Shown here: positions 41,975-44,470 of the stretch, piece by piece
Numbering within the stretch: position 1 is the stretch's first letter
How the letters are laid out: each line of letters opens with the position of its first letter
Source: Eledone cirrhosa
Lineage: Eukaryota
Assembly (NCBI GenBank): GCA_964016885.1
Contig: OZ024743.1
Coordinates: forward strand, 109,926,001 to 109,990,000
DNA length: 64,000 nt
Reading direction: 5' to 3'
Translations under genes and position numbers: made by a program
The notes under the pieces: model-generated
Seen by the model: the letters and a program-made list of their open reading frames with translations, nothing else
Databases searched by the model: none
Told to the model about the DNA's origin: nothing

Positions 41975-43178
41975 AAGTTGTAATATAATGAAACGAAATT
42001 TCATTTATCACTCTTAGTACGGCACTTACTTAAATGTAAGTATGTATGTATACGTACATACATATATGTATACAGACGTACAGTAGCATGCATATATATA
42101 TATATATACATATATACATACAGGTACACATATAGATATGTACGTATCAGTTTAGCGGACGTTTATTATAACGCCCGCTTTGTCCGTTTGTAAACAAGCG
42201 GACAGCCTGATTTATGCCGTACGGTGTTAAGGCAACCACGTCACCTTTTTGTTCAACACTGACACAGGAACGATGTACTAGTTTCAAGCTACTTAGCTAT
42301 CATCAGCACCGTATACCCTCCTGCAAGATGGTTGAACGTTCGAAAGTATATACTTTCCTTATGAAAATTAACGGCTGAGCAGCCTAATTTGCATATCGAG
42401 TGAGTTCAGTCGGCCAGGCGTACCGAAAACGATAAGTTATAATATAATGAAACGAAATTTCATTTCTCACTCTTCGTACGGCACTTACTTAAATGTAAGT
42501 ATGTATGTATACGCACATACATATATGTATACAGACGTACAGTAGCATGCATATATATATATATATATATATATACATATATACATACAGGTACACACAT
42601 ATATATGTACGTATCAGTTTAGCGGACGTTAATTATAACGCCCGCTTTGTCTGTTTGTAAACAAACGGACAGCCTGATTTATACCGTACGGTGTTAAGGT
42701 AACCACGTCACCCTTTTGTTCAACACTGACACAGGAACGATGTACTAGTTTCAAGCTTCTTAGCTAGCATCAGCACCGTATACCCTTCTGCCAGATGGTT
42801 GAACGTTCGAAAGTATATACTTTCCTTATAAAAATTAACGGCTGAGCAGCCTAATTTGCATATCGAGTGAGTTCAGTCGGCCAGGCGTACCGAAAACGAT
42901 AAGTTGTAATATAATGAAATGAAATATAATTGTTCCTGTGTCAGTGTTGAACAAAAAGGTGACGTGGTTGCCTTAACACTGTACGGCATAAATCAGGCTG
43001 TCCGCTTGTTTACAAACGGACAAAGCGGACGTTATAATAAACGTCCGCTAAACTGATACGTACATATATATATTTATGTGTACCTGTATGTATATATGTA
43101 TATATATATATATATATATGCATGCTACTGTACGTCTGTATACATATATGTATGTACGTATACATACATACTTACATA
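41975..43178 (-). mobile_element. Retrozyme-like array, family F: two 467 bp units plus an inverted partial
   Basis: HHRs at 42271-42311 (CGGTG-CTGATGA-T AGCT AAGT AGCT T-GAAA-CTAG-TA-CATCG) and 42738-42778. Octamers at 42387 and 42854. No recognisable ORF. Confidence 0.88.
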
Positions 43179-43614
43179 TATATATATATATATATATATA
43201 TATATATATATATATATATATATATATATATATATATATATATATATATATATATATATATATATATATATATGTATATATACGTATATAGAAGCACATA
43301 TATGCATATATATAAACTGCACCACACACACATATATCAATATATATATATATATGTACATATTTATTTATTTATTTATATATCTATAACTATATGTGTA
43401 CACTGATATATATATATACATATATATATATAGAATATCCCGATAAGGGTGAAAGCAGCGATTATTTGCTTAAATTTAATATGTTATTTTAATAAATAAA
43501 TGTATATATATATATATATATATATATATATATATATATATATATATATATATATATATATATATGTATATATATATATATATATATATATATATATATA
43601 TATTTATATATATA

Positions 43615-44470
43615 CTTAAAAGAAATAGGAATTTCACTTCAAGAATAGCTTTATACAATATGTATAAATATTTCGTATCTCCAAATAAATACGGTTTTAA
43701 GAAGCCGTAGCTATGTAAACACAGTGGGCTAACGTCATTTGGTGATGTCCAGCAGAAGCAAGTGGGACAAACGTCTATGCATTTCAGGCTTAACTGGCCT
43801 TCGTCAGGGCGGTCCCGCCCACCTCTGGCGACTGCTGGACTAGAAGACAGGCTGGAATATATAGATATCTCATCTGTGTATTCATCTCATTTGCATATGA
43901 AGCTGCATAAGTTGGCTCAACTTATAATAAAAAAGAAATAGTATTTCGCTTCAAGCATAGTATATATTCTCGCCTGTCTTCTAGTCCAGTAGTCGCAAGC
44001 GGTGGGAGGGACCGTCCTGACGAAGGCCAGTTAAGCCTGAAATGCATAGACAGTTGTCTCCCTTATTTCTGCTGGACATCACCAGAGGCCGTTAGCCCAC
44101 CGGTGTTTTCATAGCGGCTTCCTAAAACCTTATTTCTTTGGAGATACGAAATATTTATACATATTGTATAAAGCTATGCTTGAAGCGAAATACTATTTCT
44201 TTTTTTATTATAAGTTGAGCCAACTTATGCAGCTTCATATGCAAATGAGATTAATGACCTCATTTACACAGACAAGAAAAATATACATGTTCGCCTGTCC
44301 TCTAGTCCAGCAGTCGCAAGCGGTGAGAGGGACCGTCCTGACGAAGGCCAGTTAAGCCTGAAAATCATAGACGATTGTCTCCCTTGCTTCTGCTGGACAT
44401 CACCCCGGTGTTTGCATAGCTACGGCTTCCTAAAACCGTATGTCTTTGGAGATACGAAATATTTATACAT
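43615..44470. mobile_element. Retrozyme-like array, family I: 321 bp unit, one inverted plus tandem copies
   Basis: HHRs at 43772-43811 (-), 44013-44052 (+) and 44334-44373 (+): CGTC-CTGACGA-AGGC CAGTTAA GCCT-GAAA-TGCA-TA-GAC. Octamers at 43889 and 44239. Confidence 0.9.

Follow-up and report, generated by a model that had tools for sequence, protein, structure and literature searches.

Non-coding tandem hammerhead repeats in a cephalopod genome carry a host-type octamer block and TATA box as a putative promoter

At least six families of non-coding tandem hammerhead repeats in the Eledone cirrhosa genome carry, ahead of the ribozyme, an octamer block together with a TATA box, a pair that the repeats probably use as their own promoter. 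The 12-nt block, TATGCAAAT(T/G/C)AG, is the proximal element of the host's own type-3 genes; across host type-3 promoters and repeat units it takes the form TATG(C/G)(A/T)AAT(T/G)AG. By the features that can be tested from sequence, the repeats appear to be non-LTR retrozymes that would operate in the manner of newt satellite 2, and their promoter block can be traced to host type-3 genes. The module was noticed in a 64-kb stretch of one contig (hereafter the window) by a sequence-only reading; the observation is confirmed and extends further than first reported.

The octamer-TATA-hammerhead module

Eight exact octamers ahead of ribozymes had been described in the window, at 346, 19002, 42387, 42854, 43889, 44239, 48096 and 55601, and each lies at that position and on the strand given, as does the octamer at 56001, which had been called a variant and reads ATGCAAAC (Table 1). 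In total, the window holds 14 exact octamers against 6.6 expected, a count matched by 0 of 100 shuffles; the remaining six, about the chance number, have no ribozyme downstream. All nine window copies contain the reported TATA or ATATA box between octamer and ribozyme. The distance from octamer end to ribozyme core is 74–91 nt in these copies, and the spacing, described as fixed, proved constant within each family but different between families: measured from the octamer start, the core follows at 88 nt in F, 92–93 nt in A, 99 nt in I and 100 nt in G. Most window copies are decayed, with a 10-nt spacer deletion at 43889 and 48096 and altered cores at 346, 42854 and 55601. Family A units have two more octamer-like repeats upstream.

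Table 1. Octamer-hammerhead repeats and associated features in the window.
Feature	Position	Strand	Remarks
Family F insertion	41973..43180	-	Two tandem ~467-bp units 41973-42931 (-) plus inverted 5' piece 42929-43180 (+); in (TA)n tract
Octamer-NAG block, upstream F unit	42851..42862	-	
TATA box, upstream F unit	42814..42819	-	Octamer +42
Type I hammerhead, upstream F unit	42735..42790	-	Core CTGATGC, one mutation; predicted cut 42743/42742
Octamer-NAG block, downstream F unit	42384..42395	-	
TATA box, downstream F unit	42347..42352	-	Within 16-nt palindrome
Type I hammerhead, downstream F unit	42265..42323	-	Intact core 42306-42300; 1-bp stem III, palindromic loop; predicted cut 42276/42275; predicted start near 42322
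Family I insertion	43618..44472	.	Inverted copy 43618-43960 (-) plus 1.6 direct units 43954-44472 (+); unit ~323 bp; (TA)n both sides
Octamer-GAG block, family I inverted copy	43886..43897	-	10-nt spacer deletion; core 43807-43801
Octamer-GAG block, family I direct copy	44238..44249	+	TATA-like at +42/43; core 44338-44344
Family I core of 5'-truncated unit	44017..44023	+	TATA kept, octamer lost by inversion
Family I copy	47825..48132	-	Octamer 48096-48103
Older F-subfamily copy	18661..19280	-	Octamer 19002-19009; intact core 18921
Family A copy	83..458	-	Octamer 346-353; mutated core
Family A insertion	55323..56252	.	Copy 55323-55814 (-), octamer 55601-55608, dead core; second copy 55940-56252 (+), variant octamer 56001-56008
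Empty (TA)n site in duplicated flank	45776..45846	.	Counterpart of F insertion site

Across the 3.0-Gb assembly, an octamer followed after 70–100 nt by a core occurs 35,941 times, compared with 25 matches for the reversed pattern, so the spacing enrichment that the sequence-only reading had proposed to look for is present genome-wide. The F/G core alone gave 23,560 matches against 0 for its control. When 101 F/G cores were collected from the first 22.6 Mb of contig C1 with no octamer requirement, 88 had an octamer at exactly 88 nt (27 cores) or 100 nt (61 cores). Arrays inflate these and the genome-wide counts; the 61 are all family G, and many come from two arrays. The other 13 comprise ten truncated or inverted copies, two internally deleted copies and one old divergent copy.

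Three families had been credited with the module. F, A and I do carry it, and the total is at least six, since the pattern matches also brought up J, G with its 466-bp unit and H, which is older. Family G is young, with units of 466–469 bp in arrays of up to 31, and its subfamilies differ by a compensatory stem II change. Family H, old and dispersed (1,144 candidate places), has a variable T-run directly after the ribozyme and is possibly the closest to the captured ancestor. Two old copies set apart as a family K and three other pattern matches looked degenerate or chance and were rejected. Units span 323–467 bp with a GC content of 0.36–0.44 and no LTR features, and the ORFs across them are microsatellite read-throughs only.

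The promoter stretch that F and A had been said to share is homologous past the octamer (0 of 500 shuffles), and that of G belongs with them; the bodies, described as different, are weakly similar between F and A, as they are between I and A, and clearly related between F and G. The family I promoter is unrelated to those of F and A outside the block. Given the promoter homology of F, G and A and the related bodies, the block was likely captured once, in a common ancestor.

A descriptor search found a type I hammerhead in each tandem unit; Rfam models missed these ribozymes, both at the gathering score and with E allowed up to 10. Folded in isolation, ribozyme fragments do not outperform shuffled sequence (z about -1). 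Among ten F/G copies, 95% of cells pair, both sides changed in 7 of 12 pairs, and the covariation score is 0.49, compared with at most 0.14 when slid. Stem III has one pair and a palindromic loop in F, G and I and three pairs in A; a hammerhead with a one-pair stem III works as a dimer, according to the sections of PMC7229834 covered here. By these testable features, the repeats qualify as putative non-LTR retrozymes.

Other hammerheads that were examined lack the octamer. The block was found in 0 of 25 PLE-type ribozymes in the flanks, assigned to PLEs by their position beside RT/GIY-YIG remnants, and the PLE hammerheads at 46784, 60862 and 61250 (-) have no octamer; nor does a hammerhead-like motif at 49342 (+) whose stems II and III are long. 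In other families, hammerheads paired head to head form long inverted repeats, and the four copies examined have no octamer block. The window also contains near-perfect long palindromes of 93–96% identity at 27396–27755, 27765–28535 and 60754–61097.

The block in host snRNA promoters

To place the block among host genes, loci with a TATA box at -30 were counted as genes and others as pseudogenes, which is a judgement. On this count the block sits at -76 to -78 in 5 of 5 host Pol III type-3 promoters (three of U6, one each of U6atac and MRP). The exact octamer precedes the single U6 genes of C5 and C9, at -76/-77, and in the C19 array 10 of 16 U6 copies have ATGCTAAT at -78 while 6 of 16 have an insertion that displaces the block; the inserted sequence is a ~140-bp repeat between the TATA box and the start. 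Of 20 U6 loci, two are without a promoter-like flank, and among eight further U6 matches the five displayed all lack both the block and an intact 5' end. At -77, one of six U6atac loci shows ATGGAAAT, and the exact block stands at that position in the single MRP gene, which was found after the matrix described below was built.

None of 14 distinct U1, U2 and U5 promoters carries the block; these have YCART at -55 to -58 and a TATA-like box. The difference between Pol III and Pol II snRNA promoters is thus 5 of 5 against 0 of 14 (p=9e-5), or 3 of 3 against 0 of 3 by gene type (p=0.1). The U1/U2/U5 layout shows AATTAA near -89, TCAGT near -56 and the TATA-like box near -30, and TTAYYTCCCTT near -255 is common to U1, U2 and U6. 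When F, G, I and A units were scanned with a matrix built from four U6/U6atac blocks, the best site in each was unit position 0, a result reached by none of 200 shuffles per family.

An octamer at -77 in Pol III genes is an unusual layout; the human octamer usually lies at -250 to -170 (covered part of PMC9652321). The host distal element, at about -255, is absent from F, A and G and has a loose match only in I, at -254; MRP and U6atac are likewise without the exact distal motif.

Constraint on the block

We compared variants in 252 copies from 122 insertions; these were collected independently of the octamer pattern, and 212 of 249 sources were retained. At least three insertions share a variant in 1 of 48 block columns, against 100 of 667 columns elsewhere (p=0.005); for the TATA box the count is 1 of 24 and for the core 1 of 38. 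The octamer-conservation check suggested by the earlier reading came out moderately in its favour, the block being depleted of shared variants as is the catalytic core. The spacer is also depleted (9 of 120 columns, p=0.016). Because the block also has rather fewer singletons, and a test of shared against singleton variants falls short of significance (block p=0.10, block plus TATA p=0.08), support for selective constraint on the block is moderate. Seven representatives, themselves picked up by their octamer, agree at 11 block positions but not in the flanks. Of two sequencing runs, one gave 3,432 pieces and the other none; the 22 variant places of the former spare the block and TATA box, too few to serve as evidence.

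Octamer-TATA spacing and polymerase choice

The octamer start lies 46–48 nt from the TATA box in host Pol III genes, compared with 40–43 nt in F, G, A, I and J, a spacing that no examined host gene has. Family H has its TATA box at +47, as in U6, in 11 of the 18 copies with a recognizable block (25 examined). The resemblance to type-3 Pol III promoters that had been proposed for octamer and TATA therefore holds for the block, which is the host type-3 element, and fails for the spacing outside family H. A plain type-3 Pol III reading would fit that family only.

In F, G, A, I and J, a YCA begins at octamer+16, 25–27 nt ahead of the TATA box, which is the Pol II snRNA distance; with the TATA box set at -30 it falls at -56, where U1, U2 and U5 carry YCART. 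A comparison of the intervening sequence with the host U6/U1 PSE, as had been proposed, thus yields a PSE-like motif, but a significant one in family A only. There the Pol II box is the best site of its unit (2 of 200 shuffles); unit-wide it is not significant in F (129 of 200) or in G and I (200 of 200 each), where it ranks 6, 15 and 7 in F, G and I units. On a Pol III box model the G spacer ranks 4 of 466, and those of F, I and A rank 248, 33 and 108. A TATA box at -30 puts the predicted start 14–29 nt ahead of the core and 47–60 nt ahead of the cut. Between successive ribozymes lie T6 runs in I and A and T5 runs in G; those in I and A would hinder Pol III read-through, which counts against a plain type-3 Pol III reading of these two families.

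If the repeats do use their own promoter, Pol II is the somewhat more probable polymerase for the short-spaced families F, A, I and G. Family H would preserve a U6-type Pol III origin, and Pol II is slightly favoured overall. We give less credence, as a doubtful variant of the own-promoter model, to Pol III reading all families with leaky termination at the T-runs. Such a reading draws on the occurrence of the block, among host genes examined, in Pol III genes only, on the exact U6 geometry of family H and the high rank of the G spacer, on the Pol III transcription of Schistosoma Sm-alpha (PMC6765202, in part) and on human RPPH1, in which the octamer (DSE) adjoins the PSE and which serves both polymerases (PMC9652321, in part). 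It has to contend with a spacing 4–6 nt below that of all five host Pol III promoters, with T5–T6 runs within I, A and G units, and with the low Pol III box ranks in F, I and A.

A tentative evolutionary scenario, which we hold to be possible rather than probable, starts from a circular-RNA retroelement that acquired a U6-type promoter, a gene-external type that to our knowledge a linear SINE cannot carry. In younger families the distance from octamer to TATA box might then have shrunk by roughly half a helical turn, with a resulting switch from Pol III to Pol II that let the T-runs be read, and the genome would now hold mobile snRNA-type promoters and POU-factor sites in at least 36,000 copies.

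Insertion structure and mobility

Insertions consist of tandem units with an inverted 5' piece and two 3' ends, in (TA)n. The two 3' ends differ by a 47–58-nt tail (F 372/430, I 250/297). Inspection by eye shows both ends at about 11 of 24 insertions in F and 11 of 30 loci in I, scripted counts of 3' ends being uninformative in F and A, where internal AT tracts and mismatches interfere. The same features are listed for PLEs (PMC8557442, in part), and this architecture of inverted 5' piece, tail and (TA)n target agrees with the PLE mobilization that the sequence-only reading had put forward. A sister copy of the flank of the window's F insertion, at 45317–46126, holds an empty (TA)n site. The 3' ends fall after the body and before the promoter of the following unit. 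Of ten 5' breakpoints (two of which are one junction), eight lie upstream of the predicted start, so that the template would have contained promoter sequence and would be a circle or uncut multimer, not only a start-to-end linear RNA.

One 31-unit G array has 99.3% identity within itself, 88.9% to another array and a 7-unit higher-order pattern; it therefore grew at least partly at the DNA level, and the pattern rules out long arrays as proof of rolling-circle copying. Among the window's PLE remnants, none has terminal repeats homologous to the units and no PLE partner was identified; Pfam gave weak RT/GIY-YIG matches in 3 of 8 window ORFs. These remnants, at 6665–8353 (-), 39020–40512 (-), 34421–34786 (+), 47086–47649 (-) and 59479–60015 (-), belong to several elements, one with a 562-aa open RT frame.

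A self-transcription model and its alternatives

From the arrangement of these elements we infer transcription, cleavage and circles. Transcription would start about 30 nt after the TATA box and pass through the body and the next unit's promoter up to the next ribozyme. Two cuts, probably made as a dimer given the minimal stem III of F, G and I, would free a monomer with the promoter sequence near its 3' end. Once circularized, the monomer would be copied into (TA)n by a Penelope-type RT/GIY-YIG protein, and priming between body and promoter with copying across the joint would rebuild the promoter-ribozyme order in each new copy.

The block could instead be a vestige of one ancestral capture, an RNA structure or an RT/protein signal, with the repeats transcribed by read-through from host units, the published default (PMC7761336, in part). 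We regard this as improbable, although the homologous promoters of F, G and A above weakly related bodies and the shared-variant depletion of the spacer speak for it. In F, G and I, moreover, the block pairs with an inverted near-copy 20–23 nt downstream (8–10 of 11 positions), which keeps the RNA-structure version alive. The partner strand mismatches the octamer's C, however, and the hairpin is absent from A, H and J. The block positions stay invariant across representatives while the flanks do not, the family I promoter shares nothing but the block with those of F and A, and TATA box and spacing are retained per family. It is far less likely still that these are ordinary satellites or DNA-level repeats with octamer and ribozyme motifs as passive passengers. 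Higher-order patterning in the long array and the flanking segmental duplications of the window would suit such an origin, but the copies are spread over many contigs and show an inverted 5' piece, a tail and a (TA)n target, and together with the empty sister site and the compensatory stem changes this largely excludes it. Use of the block and TATA box as the repeats' own promoter remains the reading that we prefer.

Comparison with known systems

In the open-access literature searched, we found no such promoter described in invertebrate retrozymes and no cephalopod retrozymes; the sources cited below were covered in part. The repeats resemble metazoan non-LTR retrozymes (PMC7229834, Cervera and de la Pena 2020; PMC7761336) in their type I hammerheads, short non-coding tandem repeats, GC content under 45%, highly self-paired predicted circles and likely mobilization by PLEs. 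Animal retrozymes are reported to show abundant expression in all tissues (PMC7229834, PMC7761336), and the covered sections of the 2020 review state that metazoan retrozymes seem not to harbour promoters (PMC7761336). Unlike the retrozymes reviewed there, each unit here carries a host promoter block, and F and G units measure 466–467 bp compared with the 170–400 nt quoted for metazoan retrozymes. A sharp test of promoter-less animal retrozymes comes from these families, in which the 12-nt U6/MRP block and a predicted start occur in copies numbering tens of thousands and with two natural spacings. Should they prove active, they would indicate that an upstream promoter can be carried by a retroelement thanks to its tandem/circular topology, a case independent of the newt, and would provide a natural series for studying how snRNA-type promoters choose their polymerase. 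The analysis also defines the host U6 promoter architecture (octamer at -77), which is useful for guide-RNA expression.

With PLEs (PMC8557442; preprint 10.64898/2026.07.22.740005) the repeats share tandem and inverted insertions, a tail at one end, the (TA)n target and hammerheads. The same preprint treats retrozymes as PLE derivatives and, in the sections covered, contains no promoter analysis. Unlike PLEs, the units have no ORF, their block is missing from the PLE-type ribozymes here, and they show no terminal-repeat homology within the window. Host U6/MRP promoters match them in octamer block and TATA box at -30, with identical geometry in family H, and differ from them in that spacing is shorter in five families, the distal element is missing and the block is embedded in a mobile repeat.

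The SINE-like promoter of Schistosoma Sm-alpha has tRNA-type A and B boxes. In Sm-alpha and Sj-alpha, a Pol III SINE-like promoter is followed by a hammerhead, in tandem; the cleaved Sm-alpha monomer has its promoter at the 3' end and the upstream unit transcribes the next (PMC6765202), an arrangement that the present repeats would share. Unlike in Sm-alpha, the promoter here is of the snRNA type, which is normally gene-external.

The self-promoting logic has thus already been described for newt and Schistosoma repeats, of which newt satellite 2 serves here as an analogue only. The newt satellite 2 promoter is of octamer/PSE make-up; the repeat is the subject of Coats, Zhang and Epstein (1994). 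An snRNA promoter of newt satellite 2 is cited in PMC2220036, and newt satellite transcripts are ascribed to Pol II (PMC6765202). Like newt satellite 2, these repeats are hammerhead tandem repeats with an internal snRNA-type promoter and a minimal stem III; unlike it, they belong to another animal lineage, have a block specific to host Pol III type-3 genes together with a TATA box, and comprise several families with two spacings.
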